This document shows, piece after piece, positions 20,272 to 51,031 of a stretch of DNA of 64,000 nucleotides. Position numbers and translations under genes: made by a program. The notes under the pieces are model-generated. The model searched no databases. It was given only the letters and a program-made list of their open reading frames with translations, and had not been told where the DNA came from. Within the stretch, counting starts at the first letter, position 1. Each line of letters starts with the position of its first letter. Origin of the DNA: a virus. The stretch covers positions 1 through 64,000 of the IMG/VR virus record IMGVR_UViG_3300043411_001170. One strand, written 5' to 3'.

Positions 20272-20531
20272 GTATCTTTTATCCATAATTCGTTTATAGA
20301 AAAAACATAGGTGTCACGCTTCATTTATTCTAAAAGTCCTTTCTATTTATTTAATAGAAAGTCATAAGTGAAGCAGATAATTCTTTAATAGAGTTTCTTA
20401 AGAGAGAGAGGAACTTTTTGTTAAAGAATCTTCTTCAACATGCACTCATGCTCCAATAACTAAATTATTTTGTTTTGACCTATCCACAATCCCAAGATTG
20501 TGTGAGAAGGTGTTACCCAAGGGACTTAAAA

Positions 20532-21257
20532 ATGTCGTTAGAAAATGCACTTATCAAGATGGCTTCTGAAAACCCTGAGCTTGCCGAAGATGTGATCGAC
20601 ATCCTCGCAGCTGCTGAAGACGAAGACGAAGATTTCTATGCTGATGAAGATGAAGACTTTTGGGCTTCCGATGACGAAGACGAAGATTTCTACGCCGAAG
20701 ACGAAGAAGATGATGAGGAAGATGAATTGATCGAAGCCATGTTGCACCTTGCAGCAGAAGGCGGATCAGGCGCTTCTAAGTCCAAGCGCAAGGGCAAGCG
20801 TGGTGTTCAACTTACTGGCGAAATGGGTCGTGCTCTTGCTCCCCACGTTCGCGGTAGAAAATCACAATTCCCTATGGGCCTCTACCTTGCATTCTTGAAA
20901 GAAAAGGGCGAACCCGTTTCGATTCCTCCTTTCAAGCAAAATGCTGCTGCCTTCAAGAAATGGATCAAGACCAAGGCCAAGAAAGGCGGCGCATGGTACA
21001 AAGCCCGTATGAAGAAAATCCAAGGTCGTAAGCAAGCTCTCCGCGATGCTTTTGAATCTGCTGGTGGCGCTCCTGGTGCCAAGGACAGCACCATTAGCAA
21101 CACTCTCCGCAAGGTCAAGAGTGTAATGCGCGGTCGTAAGGCCGTTGAGCCTACTGGCAAGGGAACTCCCGGTAACGCTTGGTCCAAGGAAGATCGCGCA
21201 GCCCTCCGTGGCGCTCGCAACAAGTCTGCTTCCTTGGCAGAAATCCTCGGATACTAA
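20532..21257 (+). CDS. bipartite acidic/basic protein, putative abundant DNA-binding core protein
   Basis: starts MSLENALIKMASENPEL; DEDEDF(Y/W)A repeats, then K/R/A/G-rich C-terminal region; visibly higher GC than its neighbours. Confidence 0.65.
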   Translation: MSLENALIKMASENPELAEDVIDILAAAEDEDEDFYADEDEDFWASDDEDEDFYAEDEEDDEEDELIEAMLHLAAEGGSGASKSKRKGKRGVQLTGEMGRALAPHVRGRKSQFPMGLYLAFLKEKGEPVSIPPFKQNAAAFKKWIKTKAKKGGAWYKARMKKIQGRKQALRDAFESAGGAPGAKDSTISNTLRKVKSVMRGRKAVEPTGKGTPGNAWSKEDRAALRGARNKSASLAEILGY

Positions 21258-25838: not shown

Positions 25839-26138
25839 TAAAAATTCTCCGTTACATCGTTTTGAAACTATTAAACTAAAATAGTTTCTTAAGTAAGGTA
25901 CTATTTACTAGGACTACCAACTGTAGTCCAGACATGGTCATATTACCATGTTCCCTATAAAGTTATAATAAAAATCTTGGGAAGAAGTACAAATTTTATA
26001 TGACGAGGGTTTTTCCCACGTGTATTTTCTAACATGGCTTTAAACTGGTTAAACTATGTTTTCTGGAAGAAACTTTAATCCTTTAATATTCATTTATAAT
26101 GGAATATCTAAATCTCACTTTAACTATACGATAATATT

Positions 26139-27239
26139 ATGAATTTAGCACATAAAATAGAATTCCGTCCGTGTACGGACAAACAGGAAATCTTATTAAA
26201 GAAATCCTGTGGTGTAGCTAGATTCACCTATAATTGGGCGCTAGCCCAATGGAACTCTCAATATAAATTAGGTAATAAACCTACTCCCAATAAATTAAAG
26301 AAACAATTTAATTCTATTAGGAGAGAAGAATTTCCCTGGACTTATGAAGTTTCTAAATGTGCATCGGAGCAGGCTTTTGCCAACCTTGGCACCTCCTTCT
26401 CCAACTTTTTTAAAAAGATAGGTAAATACCCTAAGTTCAAAAAGAAGGGAGCCAAAGACTCCTTCTATATCTCTAACGAGGCATTTAAATTAGAAGAAAA
26501 TAAACTCAAATTATCTAAAATAGGGTGGGTCAAGTTAACTGAAAAATTAAGATTTAAGGGAAAGATAATGAATTTAACGGTCAGCAGAAAAGCTGACCGA
26601 TGGTTTGTATCTTTTAACGTTGAATTAACTTCCGAAGAGGAGTCTTCCTATAGACTCGAAAACCAAGAGTCTATAGGAGTTGATCTAGGAATTAAAAAGA
26701 TAGCCACGTTATCAAATGGAGAATCCTTCGATGGCCCCAGGCCCATGAAGAAATTATTAAAGAAAGTAAAGAAATTATCTAGAAAGGTATCAAAGAAAGT
26801 AAAAGGATCTAAAAATAGAGAAAAAGCTAAAGAGAAGTTAGCTAAGTTACATATGAAAATAGGAAATATAAGAAAAGACAGCCTACATAAGTTAACGACT
26901 AATCTTGTAAAAGATTATGGAGTAATATGTATGGAGGATTTAAATGTGAGAGGGATGGTAAAGAATCACAAGCTGGCAAGAGCCATAAGTGATATGGGAT
27001 TTGGAGAATTTAGAAGACAGTTAGAGTATAAGAGTAAATTAAGAAATGGAAGGATATTATATGTGAATAGATTTTATCCTTCAAGTAAAACATGTAGTTG
27101 TTGTAACTATAGAAAAGAAGAATTAAGTTTAAGTGAAAGAGAATACGTATGTGAGAATTGTGGAATAGTAATAGATAGAGATGTAAATGCAGCTATAAAT
27201 ATAAGAAGAGAAGGGATAAGGGCTTGTGAAAGCCCGTGA
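26139..27239 (+). CDS. tnpB: TnpB RNA-guided endonuclease (IS200/605/IS607 family), no cognate transposase in window
   Basis: CGVARFTYNWAL, PKFKKK, RuvC GVDLG / MEDLNV / DRDVNAA, Zn ribbon CSCC..CENC. Confidence 0.95.
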   Translation: MNLAHKIEFRPCTDKQEILLKKSCGVARFTYNWALAQWNSQYKLGNKPTPNKLKKQFNSIRREEFPWTYEVSKCASEQAFANLGTSFSNFFKKIGKYPKFKKKGAKDSFYISNEAFKLEENKLKLSKIGWVKLTEKLRFKGKIMNLTVSRKADRWFVSFNVELTSEEESSYRLENQESIGVDLGIKKIATLSNGESFDGPRPMKKLLKKVKKLSRKVSKKVKGSKNREKAKEKLAKLHMKIGNIRKDSLHKLTTNLVKDYGVICMEDLNVRGMVKNHKLARAISDMGFGEFRRQLEYKSKLRNGRILYVNRFYPSSKTCSCCNYRKEELSLSEREYVCENCGIVIDRDVNAAINIRREGIRACESP

Positions 27240-27411: not shown

Positions 27412-28093
27412 AAGAGATGTACTAAATTTAGCGATAACACACCCTGGACATAAAAAGAAAATCCTTGCTATTCTAGTAGACGAAGGATTTCCTATAGGTA
27501 TGCTTAAAATTGCGATGTTTACGTTAGAAAGAAAACATCGCACTATGATGAAATTAGCCGAAGAGGGTATAGACTATAATATAAAGCATATGAACTGGAA
27601 CGGTGCTCTGTATGGAAAATTCGTAAAAGAATATAAACAGAGAAGTGAAGACGAACAGAGACTTATCTGGGGAAATAAATGGAATAAATTTAATAAAGAA
27701 TTAACTGAAGATGGTAGAAAAATATGGAATGAATGGCAAAAATCTAATTTGATTGATAATATTGGACATAGATCTAAAGTAGAGCAGAGAAGAAAAGAAG
27801 AGGGATTAGGTCCATTACCAAAACCGCCAAAGAAACCTAGAAAAAGTAATCAGAAGGAGACTCCTTTACCACGTCCACCTTCCGAAAGTGCCTCATCTGA
27901 GAGCAATCCATCAACGGGTACAGCACCTAAGAAAAAGAAACAAAAAGCCCCTAAAAAAGAAAAACCTGTACAGCAGGATTTTTCTGGTGGAGTTGATATC
28001 GATGCCCTTGTAACTCAACAAATGAGTCCAAAACCAGCTACTGCTGAAGATACCAACGCTTTGTTTAGAGACAACGTTGATGACTTCAGCTAA
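27401..28093 (+). CDS. hypothetical protein with KxA motifs and basic Pro-rich tail
   Basis: LNLAITHP..ILAIL, LKIAM, MKLAE. Confidence 0.7.
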   Translation: MISPRDVLNLAITHPGHKKKILAILVDEGFPIGMLKIAMFTLERKHRTMMKLAEEGIDYNIKHMNWNGALYGKFVKEYKQRSEDEQRLIWGNKWNKFNKELTEDGRKIWNEWQKSNLIDNIGHRSKVEQRRKEEGLGPLPKPPKKPRKSNQKETPLPRPPSESASSESNPSTGTAPKKKKQKAPKKEKPVQQDFSGGVDIDALVTQQMSPKPATAEDTNALFRDNVDDFS

Positions 28094-28108
28094 ATCCCGA
28101 AAAAGGGG

Positions 28109-28420
28109 ATGCTCTCTATGACTTACGAAAATCTCATGTTAAATTTTACTTTCTCTAATTTAGAAAAGTATATAGAAGACAATATCAAGACAAGTCCGAC
28201 TATTTCTGTAGAGAAAGCAAATCAGTTACAGGTTATCATCGATAAAATAAATACCATGATGGATAAAAACCTGTTTGATCCAAATGCAAAAACTCCCATC
28301 TTTCACTGGATGAGAGTCAACATGACCTTAAAACTTTTGCTAGAATCAAACAGACATAAATTAACCCAAGCTCTTTCAAAGACCCATGAAGAACCTACGA
28401 AATTACATGATAGAGATTGA
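28109..28420 (+). CDS. hypothetical protein
   Basis: 103 aa ORF with AGGGG RBS. Confidence 0.6.
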   Translation: MLSMTYENLMLNFTFSNLEKYIEDNIKTSPTISVEKANQLQVIIDKINTMMDKNLFDPNAKTPIFHWMRVNMTLKLLLESNRHKLTQALSKTHEEPTKLHDRD

Positions 28421-28426
28421 ATTTTA

Positions 28427-28975
28427 TCAGTCTATGGCATAAATCCCTACTATGATACCAACTGCTGTAAAAACTACAGCAGTTGATCCAGAGATTAACC
28501 ACAATTCCATAGTTGTATGGGATTTTTCTAATTTATCTGAGATTTTTACATTTTCTTTATACGCTTTTTCTAAATCTGTGACGAGATCATTTCTCTGATT
28601 AGATATGTTAGTTATTTCCAGACTCAATGTTTCATAGGACTCTTTTTCAGAGTCATATAAACCTTTATAAGAATCTCGTTGAAAACTAGCTTCGTCTAGT
28701 AATTTACGGTATTCATCTCTTTCCTTTAAGACTTGTGGAAGTAGGGTTGATGTGTTTATTAGATCTTCCATAAGAAGTTTAGGGATTAGAAAACCATCTT
28801 GCCATGCTGTATTGCCAGAACATAGCCAGAAATTAGGTCTGGAGTTTCTGCATCTTGTTTCATTTACAAGATTAGGATCAGGGAGGGGTGTTAGTTCCTG
28901 TGCTTCCAATTTTGGTTTTAATCCAAGATCCAATAGAGTCAATGTCAAGACTAGGAGGGTTGTTAATTTTTTCAT
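28427..28975 (-). CDS. membrane coiled-coil protein, spanin-like
   Basis: signal-peptide-like N-terminus, coiled coil, C-terminal TM helix; overlaps 28878..29273. Confidence 0.55.
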   Translation of the reverse strand: MKKLTTLLVLTLTLLDLGLKPKLEAQELTPLPDPNLVNETRCRNSRPNFWLCSGNTAWQDGFLIPKLLMEDLINTSTLLPQVLKERDEYRKLLDEASFQRDSYKGLYDSEKESYETLSLEITNISNQRNDLVTDLEKAYKENVKISDKLEKSHTTMELWLISGSTAVVFTAVGIIVGIYAID

Positions 28976-44995: not shown

Positions 44996-45005
44996 GAACC
45001 AAATT

Positions 45006-45032
45006 AAAAAGCCCTCTTGATGAGGGCTTTTT
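45006..45032. terminator. bidirectional intrinsic terminator
   Basis: AAAAAGCCCTC/GAGGGCTTTTT between convergent genes. Confidence 0.9.
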
Positions 45033-45038
45033 AATTTA

Positions 45039-45746
45039 TTAGTCGTCAAATTCTTCGTTTCCGTCACTTTCCTCATCATCCTCTTCATCAAGGATATTTA
45101 CAAAAGATTTTAATACAGATCGGAAAGAATTATTACCTAGCAAAGGGTTCTTTTTAAGATCTACTTTTTTAGGCTCCTCAATAACAGGTTTTGAAGATTC
45201 TAATTTTTTAGTTTCTTTAATTAAATTAGTTTTGGATAAATCTGAAGAATAAGATTCGGAAGCATCTGACTGATGATATTCAACTCCTGGTGTCTCATTA
45301 ATTTTCTCAATGACAGGTTTTTTACACCCTTTTTGAATTTTAATATTAGTTGTTTTTGCGGGTTTTCTTTGTTGAAAAGGTCTTTTCTTACGGTATTTCC
45401 AACGTTCAGCTATAGCTCTAGCTCTTGGTGGTTCCATCATATAATCAAAAAGAGCGTTGTCTTTTGTGACAACTAGGCTCTTTCTATATTTAAATTTTAG
45501 AGTGAGTTTTTCTTTGGATTCAGCAAAACCAGTTTCACTAAGGGGTGCTGTCTTCATAGCTGATGGACTATGTCTCCAGTAAAATTTTCCAAAAGGAAAT
45601 AATAAAGACTCCCCTTTTCTAATCTGGTAAAATAAAATTGTCATTCCCTTCAAAACATCTCTTACATAGTCTTTAGGAACACCTGTTAATTCATTTAATT
45701 TGTCTATGACACCAGTAAATAGAACACTGTATTTATCAATAGGCAT
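45039..45746 (-). CDS. divergent HU/IHF-like protein with long charged C-terminal tail
   Basis: VIDKLNELTGVPKDYVRDVL..KGESLLFPFGKF..LKFK follows the HU fold pattern. Confidence 0.6.
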   Translation of the reverse strand: MPIDKYSVLFTGVIDKLNELTGVPKDYVRDVLKGMTILFYQIRKGESLLFPFGKFYWRHSPSAMKTAPLSETGFAESKEKLTLKFKYRKSLVVTKDNALFDYMMEPPRARAIAERWKYRKKRPFQQRKPAKTTNIKIQKGCKKPVIEKINETPGVEYHQSDASESYSSDLSKTNLIKETKKLESSKPVIEEPKKVDLKKNPLLGNNSFRSVLKSFVNILDEEDDEESDGNEEFDD

Positions 45747-45773
45747 AATTAATTCCTTTGATGAGGATAAAGT

Positions 45774-46286
45774 ATGTTATCAAAAATAGCTAAAGCGATT
45801 GTTCCAATTATCAGACAACAGACTCAATTTACATGTAGTGCCGTATCTATATCTGCCTGTTTGCAATTTTTTGACAAACCATATAACGAAGATGATGTAA
45901 ATAGAGTTTTAAAGTGCGTACCTAAAAAGGGAGCTTCTTGGGAAGAGATTCTTCTATGCTTACAGTATTTCGGCATGAAGGGTGAATTAATAGTACCATG
46001 TAATTTTAAGATATTAAAAGAATGGACGGATAATGGAAATCCTGCTATTATAGGATGGAATCCACAAGGAAGACCTTGGTCACATGCTTCTGTAGTCTGT
46101 GACGTATCTAAGAGTAAAGGAATATTAATCATGGACCCAAACTCTGTTAATACAGATAAGACATTAAAATGGTGGTCATTCGATGATTTTTCAGACAGAT
46201 GGTACGAAAAGAGCGGTGATTTTGTAGTTAGAAGACCTGCATTAAAAGTATCTAAAGAAGTTGGAGTAAATGGTGAACTTCTGTAA
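45774..46286 (+). CDS. C39-like cysteine peptidase
   Basis: PIIRQQTQFTCSAVS (Q, C), HASVV (H), IMDPN (D). Confidence 0.85.
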   Translation: MLSKIAKAIVPIIRQQTQFTCSAVSISACLQFFDKPYNEDDVNRVLKCVPKKGASWEEILLCLQYFGMKGELIVPCNFKILKEWTDNGNPAIIGWNPQGRPWSHASVVCDVSKSKGILIMDPNSVNTDKTLKWWSFDDFSDRWYEKSGDFVVRRPALKVSKEVGVNGELL

Positions 46287-46293
46287 AAAATAA

Positions 46294-46318
46294 AAAAGAG
46301 AGGGCGTACCTCTCTTTT
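46294..46318. terminator. bidirectional intrinsic terminator
   Basis: AAAAGAGAGG/CCTCTCTTTT between convergent genes. Confidence 0.85.
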
Positions 46319-46351
46319 AAAAACTACTACACTTATTTAATAAGTCAGAAA

Positions 46352-47275
46352 TCAGTCTAAGAAATCTGATTTATCAAAATCTCCCAAAGTTTTAATTTTC
46401 TCTGACCAGTACCATGCAGATGGAATACTTTCTTTTATTTCAGCCGAAGAACTACCTAGTAGTTTCATTTTAATCAACGTATGAATAATACGTTTATCAC
46501 TTTCTTTCATATCTTCGGTCTGTTCCTCAAGAAGCTCTAAAAATTTTATGATAGCTTCCTTGTGTTCATAATCTTTTACAGGATTATGAAATGAACTACT
46601 TGATATGACATCATCAATACTAAAACATTCTAAAGTTCTATGTTTTCTATGATATTTAGAAACATAGGTGGCGTATTTCACACACCAGTATCCAAAAGCT
46701 TCTGGTGTAATACTCCCATATTTCAGAATGGCCGACTTTAATAAGTCTCTATCAAGACATTTAATGATAAAGTCGTTGATAAAATCATCAACGTCAGACG
46801 GTGACATTTCATTAAAATTCTTTAATCCTCTCTTAAATACTACACGTCTTACTTCATTAAGATAATCTTCCGTAATTTTTGAAAAGAAAACCTTTGTAAA
46901 AGTATCCCTATTTACACCTGATAAATAACCATAGAGATTAGAATCTTTTGGGAGACTCTCCAAAAGAGAGGGATTAGTTCCTAAAATATCTTGGGCTTTT
47001 ACTCCCATACCTATAATAATAGAAGAAGCAGATAATTTAGCGTTGTTTTCTTTTATAATATAACCTTCTTTTTTCATAAACTTGAGAAGATTACTTATAA
47101 ATTTTGATTTATTTTCGGGGGGAGTAAGTCTTTTCTCCACCAAAAGTAAATCAAATACAACTTCAGAGTTAGAGATAATTTTTGAAGGAGATGGATGTTT
47201 AAATCCGTACCAATTAAAGAAACTGAACGTGAATCCAATAGCTTCCATACCTGTTTCTACAATAAGTGGATTCAT
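46352..47275 (-). CDS. putative phage sigma-70-like factor
   Basis: region-2-like DVDDFINDFIIK..FGYWCVKY, SIDD, C-terminal HTH-like KLLGSSSAEIKESI. Confidence 0.5.
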   Translation of the reverse strand: MNPLIVETGMEAIGFTFSFFNWYGFKHPSPSKIISNSEVVFDLLLVEKRLTPPENKSKFISNLLKFMKKEGYIIKENNAKLSASSIIIGMGVKAQDILGTNPSLLESLPKDSNLYGYLSGVNRDTFTKVFFSKITEDYLNEVRRVVFKRGLKNFNEMSPSDVDDFINDFIIKCLDRDLLKSAILKYGSITPEAFGYWCVKYATYVSKYHRKHRTLECFSIDDVISSSSFHNPVKDYEHKEAIIKFLELLEEQTEDMKESDKRIIHTLIKMKLLGSSSAEIKESIPSAWYWSEKIKTLGDFDKSDFLD

Positions 47276-47969
47276 ATATCTCCCTCAATCCTGATTTAAG
47301 GTTCTTCTTACATACAAGAGAAGGAATCAATTCCTTCGCCCTATGTGACTAGAACTTTAATAGTTTTATTGAGGAAGTCAAGGGTTTACAAAATAAATCG
47401 TAAGACCTCAATAAACACATATACTTAAATATACACTTAAAAAGAATATGGATATAAAATCCATAAAAATATATGTATTATGACATTCCCTAATAGGAGG
47501 AAGGTAAGACTTATCAAGTCAGATCTTGATAAATACTATTTCTAATAGTTATCAAGAAAATTTGAAATGATAAGTCTTTTCAATAATTATTAATTTTTCA
47601 AAGAAAACTCACAAGAAAAAGGAGGGAAAAGGAATAAAGAATAGGGAGAGAGTATACTGACGATACTTATTCTTACTCTTCTTCTATAGTAACAAGAAAA
47701 ACTTTTGGAAGGAAAGATTCATAGACAAGATCAGAATGAACGAGATGATGTTATACATAGAGATCAACAACCACATGATGAGAAAGTTCAGAAACAAGAT
47801 TAGATTAATCTACTAGATGATTTTCTTTTTTTGGTGTTTTAAGAGATTGTATATTGTAAAGAAAGATATCTATATTCAATAATATATTATTCAAATTATC
47901 TATATAGTAAGAATATATCTTATATCCCTTTAATATATTCTTATAGACAGTTCGAATCCTCGTATAGAG

Positions 47970-48470
47970 GCCAATATCTTTCAAAGGCTATGGGGGTTAA
48001 ATTTACCAGATCTAACCTAAGTCTCCAATCAAGACCGCCAACACCTTCAGGCTCTAGTAATCTGCTGCCGTTTCAAGGCAGCCTGGATCGATTCACTAGA
48101 TACATTTACTTCTCAGCTTATGACCACTCCTCATCCAGAAATCTTTCCCTTATAAACTTAAACAATTTTATTTAACTTTATAGTGAGTCTGATTTCTTTA
48201 GAGTACGCACCAGTTCAAGTGGCTAGCCTTTAAAGGCGGGTACGCCACTCCCGCAAGATTTTCATCTCTACCTCCCATCATCTGCTTTGATTCTCACAGT
48301 TCATGTCTACTATTTTTCAAGTAATAGACACTCCTCCGTTATTGAGAGAACCAACATAATGGCTTTCTTTCAGAAATAATTTGTTTTACGATGATTACTT
48401 CTAAAATCTGCCATAGTGCCTTTAAGGGTCAGCACTACGATGATCCGCCAACGCAAGGTACACCCTAAAA
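47970..48470 (-). ncRNA. large multi-stem structured RNA of unassigned class
   Basis: about ten nested helices whose mismatches become G-U pairs on the minus strand, GAAA tetraloop, repeated internal motifs, GC island in an AT-rich gap; ends approximate. Confidence 0.7.
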
Positions 48471-48666
48471 TCAATTAATTTAATTAGTTATCTTATTTTA
48501 GTTTCTTGTCAGGAAACTTATTTTGATTAACTGTTAAAATTTAATCAATAATAGGTAAGGACTTTGTCGATATGTAGTTGTAAAAGAGCAGGCAAGCAAA
48601 ACAGATCGCTTGCTAGACAACACATCATACCAGAATTATTTAAGAGTTATCAACTTTGGTGAAAAA

Positions 48667-49182
48667 ATGTCAGAGAAAAACAAATTCTTTATAGATTTCG
48701 ATGGGAAGCCAGACGATTATCGCACAAGGTCAGATAGAAATAGGGGTACGGGTTTAGGAGAATCAGATCGTGTAGGTACAGTAGTAGATCCTGATATAAA
48801 GTATCAGTATTATTTTTTGAAGGGAACGGCAAATTATGTATTTGTAGAACAAATAGCATTTGCTTGTTATGGTATTTTGATAAATGCGTTACAGCCTTTA
48901 TTTCCTTTATCGAATGAAGCAGCACCATCACCTTTTGTGTTAATTACTCCAACAATTGCCCCATTACCCGGTAATATATCAAAGTTACGCTATCCCCTTA
49001 CAGTAAGATGGGATATGTGGCAATTTTCAGCGGTTCCAGTCATAGGGATGGAAGAAATAAATCCTAACAATCCTATAAATACGCAGGATATACAATACAA
49101 TTTTTTAAGATACTTTAGAAAACTGTATTATTACGTATATAACTCATTAATAGAGAATGGATTTCTTCCACCGTTAAATTAA
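48667..49182 (+). CDS. hypothetical protein
   Basis: likely start ATG 48667 (GGTG RBS). Confidence 0.65.
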   Translation: MSEKNKFFIDFDGKPDDYRTRSDRNRGTGLGESDRVGTVVDPDIKYQYYFLKGTANYVFVEQIAFACYGILINALQPLFPLSNEAAPSPFVLITPTIAPLPGNISKLRYPLTVRWDMWQFSAVPVIGMEEINPNNPINTQDIQYNFLRYFRKLYYYVYNSLIENGFLPPLN

Positions 49183-49193
49183 AGGAATAAAAG

Positions 49194-49397
49194 ATGGCCG
49201 ATAACAGTCCAATTAAAGTAGGTTCTTACGTCACTATTAGATGTCAAGTCAGAAGGAACGATGGAAATGAACCCTGTAAAGGAAGTACAGCTATCTTGAT
49301 TGCTAAAGTGCAACCCTCTGATATAGCTTTACAGGCAACCATTACTGCATCGTTCCAATGTTGTACTTGTAAAGGCGTTTTTACAATATCTCATTAA
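49194..49397 (+). CDS. small putative Zn-ribbon protein
   Basis: 67 aa with C..C and CCTC motifs, AAGGA RBS. Confidence 0.65.
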   Translation: MADNSPIKVGSYVTIRCQVRRNDGNEPCKGSTAILIAKVQPSDIALQATITASFQCCTCKGVFTISH

Positions 49398-49418
49398 TTT
49401 TAACTATTCCCCAACAGT

Positions 49419-49451
49419 AGTTCTAGGTGAACAGCCTCACCTAGAACTTTT
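49419..49451 (+). terminator. intrinsic terminator
   Basis: AGTTCTAGGTGA/TCACCTAGAACT stem followed by TTT. Confidence 0.75.
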
Positions 49452-49464
49452 AATAGGGGATAAA

Positions 49465-50094
49465 ATGAGTTCAAAGAAGAAGATCTTATTTCACGGTCCA
49501 AATGCAAAATCTGCATTTGAGAAGCATTTATCAAAGTGTTTTACAAGTTTTCCTATTTTACATATTAACGAAGAAACGACAATAGATACCATCAGAGACT
49601 TTTCTAGTTGGTTATTAGTCCCTTCATTTTCATCGAATAGTTGGATTGGTTTTGGGCCAGTAGACCAAATGAAACCAAGTTATTTTGATGCTATGCTGAA
49701 GGGAGTTGAAGAGAGCTTACATCATATTGTTTCATGGTGTAATTCGATTGCTTCTGTTTCTGAGACATATCAGTCAAGAGTTCAAACAATATGGTGTTAT
49801 GATCCTGCTGTAAAACCTACTAAAAAAGTAGAAGACAATATTATCAGTGAACTTCTGCAAAGTCATATTTATGAGGTGATCTCTATATTTAGTAGAGATC
49901 TTACTTCTGAAGATTTAATGAAAGAATTAGCTATAGACTTTATTAATTACAAAGACAACAGTAAGCATACAAAACTTTGGGAGTCATTAAGATCTATTGA
50001 TAAATATGACTCTGTGTCTGAAGGATTAAAGAAGAAGCTGATATTAAAATGTTTATTAGAGTACGCTGAAAGTACAAAAACAGGAAAGAAGTAG
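49465..50094 (+). CDS. degenerate clamp-loader delta'(HolB)-like subunit
   Basis: ILFHGP, TIDTIRD, DAMLKGVEE, SETYQSR echo HolB motifs (LLFxGP, IDxIR, NALLKxLEE, TIxSR). Confidence 0.6.
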   Translation: MSSKKKILFHGPNAKSAFEKHLSKCFTSFPILHINEETTIDTIRDFSSWLLVPSFSSNSWIGFGPVDQMKPSYFDAMLKGVEESLHHIVSWCNSIASVSETYQSRVQTIWCYDPAVKPTKKVEDNIISELLQSHIYEVISIFSRDLTSEDLMKELAIDFINYKDNSKHTKLWESLRSIDKYDSVSEGLKKKLILKCLLEYAESTKTGKK

Positions 50095-50095
50095 C

Positions 50096-51031
50096 ATGTT
50101 ATACTTTATAATCGGGAACGATGACTTTTTAATGTACCGTGCAAAAATAAATATGCTTAATAAGCATATAAATGCGGGGTTTCATCACTTTTCGTCAGAA
50201 GCAGGCTTAAAAGATACTGTTCTATCTTCTAAAATTTCCATGTATAAGACAGTTATTGTACATGATAATTTAAAGAAATCCGAACTTCCCTTATTAGAAC
50301 CTATTTTATATGACGATGATAAATCCATGATTATTTGTGGTATCTCCACCATAGATAAATCAGTATTAAAAGATTTAACATCAAGTGATAGGGTGATAGA
50401 ATATTATCAGCCTTATTCACAGACTGATAAAGAGTCATTTTACTTTAATATGCTTAAGAAGTTATGTAGAGATCAAAAGATCACGATAACTGATAAGACG
50501 GCTAGGACTATTGTAGACTTAACAGGTGTCTCACATACTGCTGATACAGGATTTTTATACTATGAAACGTTAAAGCTAATAAATTTTTGTAGATCACATA
50601 AAAAATCGGAGATACAGGAGTCAAGCCTAAATATTGTTGAGTCGTCTGGGGACTCAGGATTTTTTACGTTATTTGATGATTTATTAAATATAACTACAGA
50701 AACATTTTCGCAATTTGTAGGAAGAATTAATCAGTATGTAACTAAAGACCCGCAATTTTTATACGGGTTTTTTAATTATAGTTTTGGCATATTGGTGTTA
50801 CTAAAGGGATCTCAATTAGATAAAAGACAGAATGCAAAAGAAATAGCTAGTATTCTTGGAAAGAAGGAATTTTATATTAAGAGTGTTTTAAACAAAAAAG
50901 TTTTAAAAAATAGAGTAAGTTTATTATTGTCTATAGTAACAGATTCCCTTGTGTACTTAGAAACTATTCAGGGGGATTCTGTCGGTAAGTTTTTAACAGA
51001 CGTGTTCAGAGGGATAGAGAAGGGAAATTAG
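50096..51031 (+). CDS. clamp-loader delta (HolA)-like subunit
   Basis: LYFIIGNDDFL start, ETLKL, FFTLFDDL, IASILGKKEFYI; adjacent to the HolB-like gene. Confidence 0.6.
   Translation: MLYFIIGNDDFLMYRAKINMLNKHINAGFHHFSSEAGLKDTVLSSKISMYKTVIVHDNLKKSELPLLEPILYDDDKSMIICGISTIDKSVLKDLTSSDRVIEYYQPYSQTDKESFYFNMLKKLCRDQKITITDKTARTIVDLTGVSHTADTGFLYYETLKLINFCRSHKKSEIQESSLNIVESSGDSGFFTLFDDLLNITTETFSQFVGRINQYVTKDPQFLYGFFNYSFGILVLLKGSQLDKRQNAKEIASILGKKEFYIKSVLNKKVLKNRVSLLLSIVTDSLVYLETIQGDSVGKFLTDVFRGIEKGN

Follow-up and report, generated by a model that had tools for sequence, protein, structure and literature searches.

To our knowledge, only a handful of elaborately folded bacterial or phage RNAs longer than 500 nucleotides (nt) are known, and their functions are still open. 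According to the structural work on them, two such large RNAs form cages bigger than the ribosome, and identical chains are held together in OLE and GOLLD by symmetric kissing loops whose cores are palindromic; for ROOL and GOLLD, a location beside phage transfer RNA (tRNA) islands is described there as typical, not obligatory (PMC12286853). Here we analyzed a stretch of DNA of 64,000 nt (the window), which is the first part of the 137,687-nt virus record IMGVR_UViG_3300043411_001170 of IMG/VR, and in which a preliminary description made from the sequence alone had pointed to an ornate structured RNA on the minus strand at positions 47970-48470. Our results point to a probable new large phage noncoding RNA (ncRNA), independent, stable, highly structured, about 650-760 nt long and encoded on the minus strand, a reading to which we give a probability of roughly one half. 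We infer its strand, ends, tertiary contacts and function, and its transcription is weakly indicated by a metatranscriptome.

The candidate resembles ROOL in being a large, many-helix, phage-carried ncRNA with multi-branch junctions and no known protein partner, and contacts between RNA chains might be made through its self-complementary loops, in the way that kissing loops connect the chains of the ROOL octamer (PMC12286853). It differs from ROOL in that the Rfam model of that family, with its conserved pseudoknotted fold, gave no match even at E values up to 10, in that the 64 kb contain no tRNA gene, whereas ROOL is often near tRNA islands, and in that its structure is a prediction from a single sequence and multimerisation a candidate property only. 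With GOLLD it shares a phage-borne location and a two-part architecture, made of a junction core and a 3' domain; its length of 650-760 nt agrees with the ROOL/GOLLD size class in which it had been placed, and many GOLLD RNAs exceed 800 nt. In contrast to GOLLD, there was no Rfam match (including the conserved 3' region), no tRNA gene is adjacent, and the sequence and predicted fold are unrelated. Regarding the self-assembly of OLE, ROOL and GOLLD, the only lead at this locus is a 12-nt palindrome (48237-48226) together with a near-complementary loop (48433-48418).

The comparison with known families was made by a cmscan of the whole window against Rfam 15, which returned no family at the gathering score, and by searches of 47400-49000 and 47950-48625 at E values up to 10, which gave only non-significant rows. 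Judged by model match, the stretch therefore falls outside ROOL, GOLLD, OLE, RNase P, introns, riboswitches and leaders. The lack of hallmarks of RNase P, tmRNA and group I/II introns that had been noted earlier is in line with these results, with the 0 tRNA or tmRNA genes detected by ARAGORN in the window, and, for the introns, with the lack of a split open reading frame (ORF) flanking the stretch. The non-significant rows were MIR4245 (on the palindrome at 47506-47578), sR30, sn2524 and CRISPR-DR54; RAGATH-19 gave a weak full-length alignment to the AU-rich 5' part at 48427-48557 on the minus strand (20.5 bits vs a gathering score of 85.6, E 0.97), which we treated as noise.

The locus is the largest space without genes in the record. 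When ORFs of at least 70 amino acids (aa) were masked on both strands of the whole 137.7 kb, the longest ORF-free gap was 47295-48609 (1,315 nt), and the runner-up measured 336 nt. Two divergent genes flank the gap with their starts, one on the minus strand (46352-47275, 307 aa) and one on the plus strand (48667-49182, 171 aa, the form that is present in the protein collection), and the plus-strand gene row to the right begins at 48667. The biggest ORFs within the gap had 61 and 59 aa; none of eight small gap ORFs was present in a collection of 15 billion proteins, and six of them that were scanned against Pfam and PHROGs showed no match. The region thus shows no coding signal, in agreement with the preliminary description. 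An 11-codon ORF (MKILREWRTRL) preceded by GGGAGG and 5 nt occurs within the structured region (48230-48276, minus strand), with its AUG inside a GAAA hairpin; it could be a chance product of a purine-rich RNA or a leader peptide.

In the reading that we favor, transcription would start near 48617 at a sigma-70-like promoter, diverging from the gene row to the right, and the RNA would end in an AU-rich hairpin cluster near 47860. From 5' to 3' it would consist of a 5' hairpin, a core with a four-way junction, a GNRA hairpin, three purine-rich GGAGUG...UGAAYYG internal-loop modules and several hairpins, whose loops would be UUGAAA, UUUAAA or UUAAA. The predicted parts are the following:

48624-48653, minus strand: promoter-like site, -35 TTGATA, 18-nt spacer with TG, -10 TATGAT; 10 of 12 consensus matches.
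48592-48613, minus strand: 5'-proximal hairpin, 8 base pairs with a 6-nt loop; -10.4 kcal/mol, z-score (z) -3.76.
48501-48548, minus strand: 5' region rich in AU; small hairpins UUGAUUAA/UUAAUCAA and GUUUC/GAAAC.
48445-48452, minus strand: 5' copy of GUUGGCGG.
48277-48444, minus strand: four-way junction of the core, in which helix P1 closes the arms P2, P3/P3a and P4/P4b.
48297-48334, minus strand: module A, consisting of GGAGUG, a hairpin with a UUGAAA loop, and UGAACUG, with a purine-rich GA/GAA internal loop beneath the hairpin; z -3.65.
48255-48268, minus strand: GAGAU-GAAA-AUCUU hairpin with a GNRA-type loop, overlapping the AUG of the mini-ORF; pair probability 0.79.
48211-48251, minus strand: module B, consisting of GGAGUG, an insert with the palindrome GCCUUUAAAGGC (48237-48226), and UGAACUG.
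48137-48197, minus strand: long AU-rich hairpin closed by AGAAAUC/GAUUUCU; pair probability 0.97.
48053-48138, minus strand: 3' domain, made of module C and a UCUAGU/ACUAGA helix around a GCUGCC-UUGAAAC-GGCAGC hairpin; pair probabilities 0.94 and 1.00.
48130-48125 to 48095-48089, minus strand: module C, from GGAGUG to UGAAUCG.
48035-48042, minus strand: 3' copy of GUUGGCGG.
47995-48017, minus strand: hairpin GGUUAGAU/AUUUAACC; pair probability 0.96.
47863-47982, minus strand: AU-rich compound hairpin followed by U-rich sequence; -33.4 kcal/mol, z -3.15.

The recurrence of motifs is a stronger signal than the folding energy. On the minus strand GGAGUG appears three times within 210 nt (48334, 48251 and 48130), out of 17 copies of GGAGTG on both strands of the record, and UGAACUG appears twice (48303 and 48217), plus UGAAUCG at 48095, out of 11 copies of TGAACTG in the record. 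Each of the two TGAACTG copies in this stretch lies 38-41 nt after a GGAGTG, and the third GGAGTG is accompanied by TGAATCG at the same spacing. The pattern GGAGTG..TGAACTG was found 2 times vs 0.01 expected, which supports the modular recurrence proposed in the preliminary description. Likewise, GTTGGCGG was found twice vs 0.26 expected; this motif and ATCATCGTA have exactly two copies each in the record, all of them within this stretch, where the only two copies of GUUGGCGG are also located. Thus the motif count agreed with the three GGAGUG, two UGAACUG and two GUUGGCGG that had been reported, and corrected the number of UUGAAA from two to three; the loops CUUAAAGGC/CUUUAAAGGC occur twice. 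When modules A and B were folded alone, GAA was placed on the 3' strand beside a CGG/CUG-type closing helix, with GA opposite in module A; we take this internal loop to resemble the purine-rich, sheared-pair type. The insert of module B contains GCCUUUAAAGGC, a perfect 12-nt palindrome, and there is 81% complementarity between the 16-nt stretches 48433-48418 and 48237-48222.

The nested helices of the preliminary description, 12 in number, were all fully complementary on the minus strand, and five of them contain one G-U pair whose plus-strand equivalent is an A-C mismatch, as had been anticipated. Together with the folding statistics of both strands (z -4.15 on the minus vs -2.07 on the plus strand), these G-U pairs support the assignment to the minus strand. 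When the partition function was computed for a transcript of 771 nt, nine of the 12 helices had a mean pair probability of at least 0.79 (0.79-1.00), the complementary GAGAU-GAAA-AUCUU tetraloop hairpin that had been proposed among them at 0.79. The uncertain helices were 48277-82/48439-44 (0.26), 48359-63/48410-14 (0.41), which forms the base of the second arm, and 48218-23/48244-49 (0.62), which belongs to module B. The first of these is P1 and had been proposed to close the multi-branch junction: its complementarity was confirmed, but its low pair probability makes the closure the weakest part of the model. P3 corresponds to the value of 0.41, and the core arms reached 0.89-0.99. Constrained folding of 181 nt completed the four-way junction at -49.2 kcal/mol, vs -50.2 kcal/mol for the unconstrained minimum free energy (MFE). 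Two further sites would allow other pairings: in module B, GCGGG/CCCGC and GCGUAC/GUGCGU appeared as competing pairings, and in the 3' domain CUGGAU/AUCCAG (48138-33/48088-83) crosses the UCUAGU/ACUAGA helix, so that this domain may form a pseudoknot or fold differently.

The comparison of folding energies with dinucleotide shuffles, which had been named as a possible refutation of the RNA, favored the minus strand. A minus-strand transcript of 521 nt folded at -149.4 kcal/mol (z -4.15), with 0 of 100 shuffles as good, and the plus strand folded at -110.6 kcal/mol (z -2.07), with 2 of 100 shuffles as good; for 771 nt of the minus strand (48620-47850) the value was -210.5 kcal/mol (z -5.35), with 0 of 20 shuffles as good. 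In sliding 150-nt windows over 47850-48500, the minus strand was the more negative one in 11 of 14. The segment 47850-47999 alone had a z of -4.21, and downstream of the hairpin at 47982-47863 the folding signal was lost (z 0 to +2.7). This hairpin is a candidate for the 3' end or terminator of the RNA.

Of the seven public sequencing runs that share words with the locus, four were compared over 45000-51000. Only two contigs of a metatranscriptome run (X4) fell on this interval, 48272-48422 and 48461-48609, both 100% identical. Both lie within the gap and none on the flanking genes, at a depth of 2 and without strand. Contigs of a DNA run from the same study (X5) were scattered elsewhere (45330-45542, 48638-48802 and 50258-50459). 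By simple arithmetic, the chance that two random pieces on 6,001 nt would both fall within the gap of 1,391 nt is about 5 in 100; the preferential RNA cover of the gap is a weak hint. Runs X2, X3 and X5 offered no cover of the RNA locus, at 80% likeness or more, that was usable for comparison. The X4 contig reaching 48609 suggests that the RNA begins upstream of 48470, and it reads through the hairpin at 48592-48613, which scored as terminator-like and may be a stabilising 5' stem-loop. The promoter-like site at 48653-48624 was the best of eight in the gap and would put the start near 48617. The observation at 47970-48470 was confirmed, and the feature probably reaches beyond these coordinates on both sides. 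A separate promoter-like site (TTGACT-16-TAAAGT, 47381-47354) and a hairpin precede the downstream 307-aa gene, and this arrangement, together with the RNA's own promoter-like site and 5' hairpin, speaks for the RNA being its own transcription unit.

As for its activity, the RNA might act in trans as a scaffold, which we propose with low confidence. The repeated modules and loops would be docking sites for several protein copies or for other copies of the same RNA, and the palindrome GCCUUUAAAGGC and the near-complementary CUUAAAGGC loop could form symmetric kissing contacts, as in the multimers of ROOL, GOLLD and OLE.

The record was estimated to be 31% complete by CheckV and therefore represents part of a phage genome of several hundred kb. 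The genes for terminase, portal, protease and major head protein are located further along the record. Relatives of the terminase at 86, 86 and 75% identity were found only in Logan/ENA assemblies; the next ones are about 45% identical, and many of these lie on contigs of 250-470 kb. The helicase has one related cluster at 74%, all others being at 50% or less. By helicase and terminase, the closest GenBank record is LR745208.1, a 485-kb uncultured phage with 44-45% aa identity. This phage lineage is thinly sampled. For both genes at 49465-51031, to the right of the gap, Pfam gave 0 families.

We searched for relatives of the RNA by several routes. A blastn search in a distant setting against 50,697 phage records yielded no match; in LR745208.1 there was a 19-nt chance match within coding DNA and 0 pattern matches. 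Scans of IMG/VR, a metagenome collection and GTDB genomes with the flanking proteins (single proteins and an alignment) gave no relative, and an alignment of the terminase subclade gave no close relative in genome contigs (2 distant rows) or in viral contigs. Four RNA-pattern scans produced more than 119, 16, at least 120 and 12 matches, and the fetched ones were screened by blastn against the gap and for motif content; no homolog was found among the matches listed. A look-alike of module B was discarded, as it lies inside a 143-aa ORF that, from a reading of the sequence, is apparently a tail-protein gene. Eighty IMG/VR records carry a terminase 34-47% identical to that of this phage. On 46 of them blastn found short matches only; of 10 that were inspected, one was in a short AT-rich spacer and the other nine were in long ORFs. 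When a covariance model of the core, which scored 229.6 bits on the window as a positive control, was run on 76 of the 80 records, it gave one 13-bit match within an ORF of more than 1,000 aa. These results imply that the RNA, if real, is lineage-restricted or fast-evolving. No paralogs of it occur in the 137.7-kb record, and a literature search by text, which cannot detect a sequence, did not reveal any huge phage for which an RNA of this kind is described.

Several points weigh against an independent ncRNA. No homolog emerged from the DNA, pattern, protein-guided or covariance-model searches, including the model search of 76 distantly related huge-phage records, and the fold is thus a prediction from one sequence. 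The junction-closing helix has a pair probability of 0.26, and module B folds no better than shuffles (isolated z -0.02), so its pairing is ambiguous. The support from the RNA run amounts to two depth-2 contigs without strand, for which DNA carry-over is possible. Promoter-like sites in the gap show no excess (8 vs 6.8 in shuffles). The GC (guanine and cytosine) enrichment that had been noted is real but modest: GC is 0.38-0.405 in 200-nt windows over 47900-48399 and up to 0.46 in 150-nt windows, compared with a record mean of 0.345 and a standard deviation (sd) of 0.045-0.053 by window size (0.045 for 300-nt windows), that is, 1-2 sd only, and the stronger GC islands of the record are coding. 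A genomic control, in which the MFE of all 250-nt windows of the phage DNA was regressed on G and C content, gave a z of about -1.5 to -1.7 for four windows over 47876-48500, outside the 25 most extreme of the phage DNA; the best 500-nt block ranked 47th of 2,196 (top 2%) and the best 750-nt block 58th of 2,192. The folding signal is thus consistent along the stretch and strand-biased, but moderate.

Some other segments were prominent in the same analyses. The regions 25876-26750, 28001-28500 and, further along the record, 124751-127375 fold more strongly for their composition than the candidate and hold top ranks in the genomic control; the top-ranked block at 26126 overlaps a 300-nt gap (25839-26138). 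The strongest GC island of the window (20475-21257, up to 55%) is a 260-aa ORF without a Pfam family, which has acidic DEDEDFYA-type repeats and then a lysine/arginine-rich half. At 47506-47578 there is an imperfect inverted repeat with 35-nt arms and four TTATCAA/TTGATAA motifs, of which both strands fold strongly. Its 13-mer TAAGAGTTATCAA (plus strand) recurs at 48641-48653, over the -35 element of the promoter-like site of the RNA; the 13-mer is a candidate operator common to the RNA and the 307-aa gene, as judged from the sequence.

Origin transcripts are known that form R-loops or serve as primer RNA, such as ColE1 RNA II and the T4 oriF and oriG transcripts, and the locus might be a replication origin or control region of this type, with an AT-rich unwinding tract and with the TTATCAA/TTGATAA repeats as protein-binding sites. 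The GC skew of the plus strand (-0.17 to -0.37 over 47900-48499) implies that a minus-strand transcript would be G-rich, and this transcript would run into the tract at 47791-47950, which has 19% GC and nested AT palindromes, directly follows the folded RNA and is among the most AT-rich tracts of the record (0.06% of its 150-nt windows have a GC of 0.19 or less). A folded G-rich transcript of several hundred nt running into an AT-rich tract is the feature shared with ColE1 RNA II, a feature necessary, not sufficient, for an origin of that type. The inverted repeat at 47506-47578, whose 13-mer also covers the -35 element, and the location upstream of the gene for a RecD/Dda-like helicase (PHROG match) are consistent with this explanation. 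Nevertheless, the cumulative GC skew has no turning point at the locus, iteron-like direct repeats are lacking beyond short weak pairs, no DnaA-family gene is present in the record (31% of the genome), and several other tracts of the record are equally AT-rich. As for further differences from ColE1 RNA II, our analysis gave no evidence here for an origin, RNase H processing or an antisense regulator, and the repeated internal-loop modules of the locus have no counterpart there. An origin would leave the three modules and the G-U-dependent helices unexplained, and we consider it unlikely.

A nonfunctional stretch, such as the remains of a decayed gene or a mosaic segment that was acquired recently, with helices and repeats that are chance or relic, appears similarly improbable. 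The DNA run X2 contains a relative as a 6,143-nt contig, about 92% identical over 45001-47658, whose alignment ends at about 47660, which places the gap at a mosaic boundary, although the missing cover past the end of the contig carries no weight as evidence; this boundary, the rank of the folding within only the top 2% of the phage's own DNA and the lack of a detected homolog in DNA, pattern or covariance-model searches would agree with such an origin of the stretch. On the other hand, a gap longer than 336 nt occurs only here, in a phage genome, a type of genome that is compact; the recurrence of the motifs is far above chance, the helices contain strand-specific G-U pairs, Pfam and PHROG scans found no frame-shifted protein similarity, and the RNA-run contigs lie only in the gap. 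Near the boundary, a short pyrimidine-rich stretch (47610-47693) is present on at least three X2 contigs at depths of 16-41, compared with 10 for the contig of the related phage, which stops at this point, and the other contigs go on into dissimilar sequence. The stretch may represent either a mosaic junction or an element that is repeated, and the window's own record has no second copy of it.

Rather doubtful is a cis-acting function, in which the RNA would be the long 5' untranslated region of the minus-strand gene 46352-47275 and would control it by termination/antitermination or at translation. The RNA is on the same strand as this gene and upstream of it, and a terminator-like hairpin (47337-47320) is located just ahead of the ribosome-binding site. 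For the 307-aa protein, relatives at 66% and 64% identity were found, both only in Logan assemblies, and no Pfam or PHROG family. Its AlphaFold model (mean predicted local distance difference test score 67.7) contains a confident N-terminal domain of a helix plus a beta-hairpin. The closest leads were viral Sigma70_r2 clusters (Atlas score 0.92), and Foldseek found nothing in the PDB at an E value of 0.001 or better, the weak rows for sigma factors and for DtxR-type repressor/winged-helix proteins being leads only; with these weak leads, the protein may be a regulator. Against a leader, the folded part lies about 580 nt away from the gene, with pyrimidine-rich, unstructured sequence between them (z about 0 to +2.7), the promoter-like site at 47381-47354 lies between the two, Rfam showed no match to a riboswitch or leader family, and no X4 contig covers 47276-48271, a hole that proves little. 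Finally, it is very improbable that the element belongs to the plus strand, as a long and structured 5' leader for the gene row starting at 48667: the plus strand also beats its shuffles (z -2.07), it has a promoter-like site at 47854-47883 and the X4 contigs are strandless, but five of the 12 helices would have an A-C mismatch, the MFE is -110.6 vs -149.4 kcal/mol on the minus strand, and the GNRA and UUGAAA loops exist on the minus strand only.

Going beyond the independent ncRNA that we favor, we tentatively propose a new class of giant ornate phage RNA of about 700 nt, unrelated to ROOL, GOLLD and OLE, which would combine a four-way core with three GGAGUG/UGAAYYG modules, assemble into a higher-order RNA-only or RNA-protein particle via palindromic and mutually complementary loops, and be limited to one lineage of huge phages from freshwater/wastewater that has been sampled sparsely. 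Such a class is possible but unproven. Were the transcript to belong to an origin instead, it would show where replication starts in a lineage of uncultured huge phages. A real RNA at this locus would represent a new family in the small group of large ornate phage RNAs, outside every known family, and a compact new subject for structural work, whose repeated modules would provide a handle for mutagenesis and pull-downs. Furthermore, another unrelated example, in a huge phage and without a nearby tRNA island, would widen this group.

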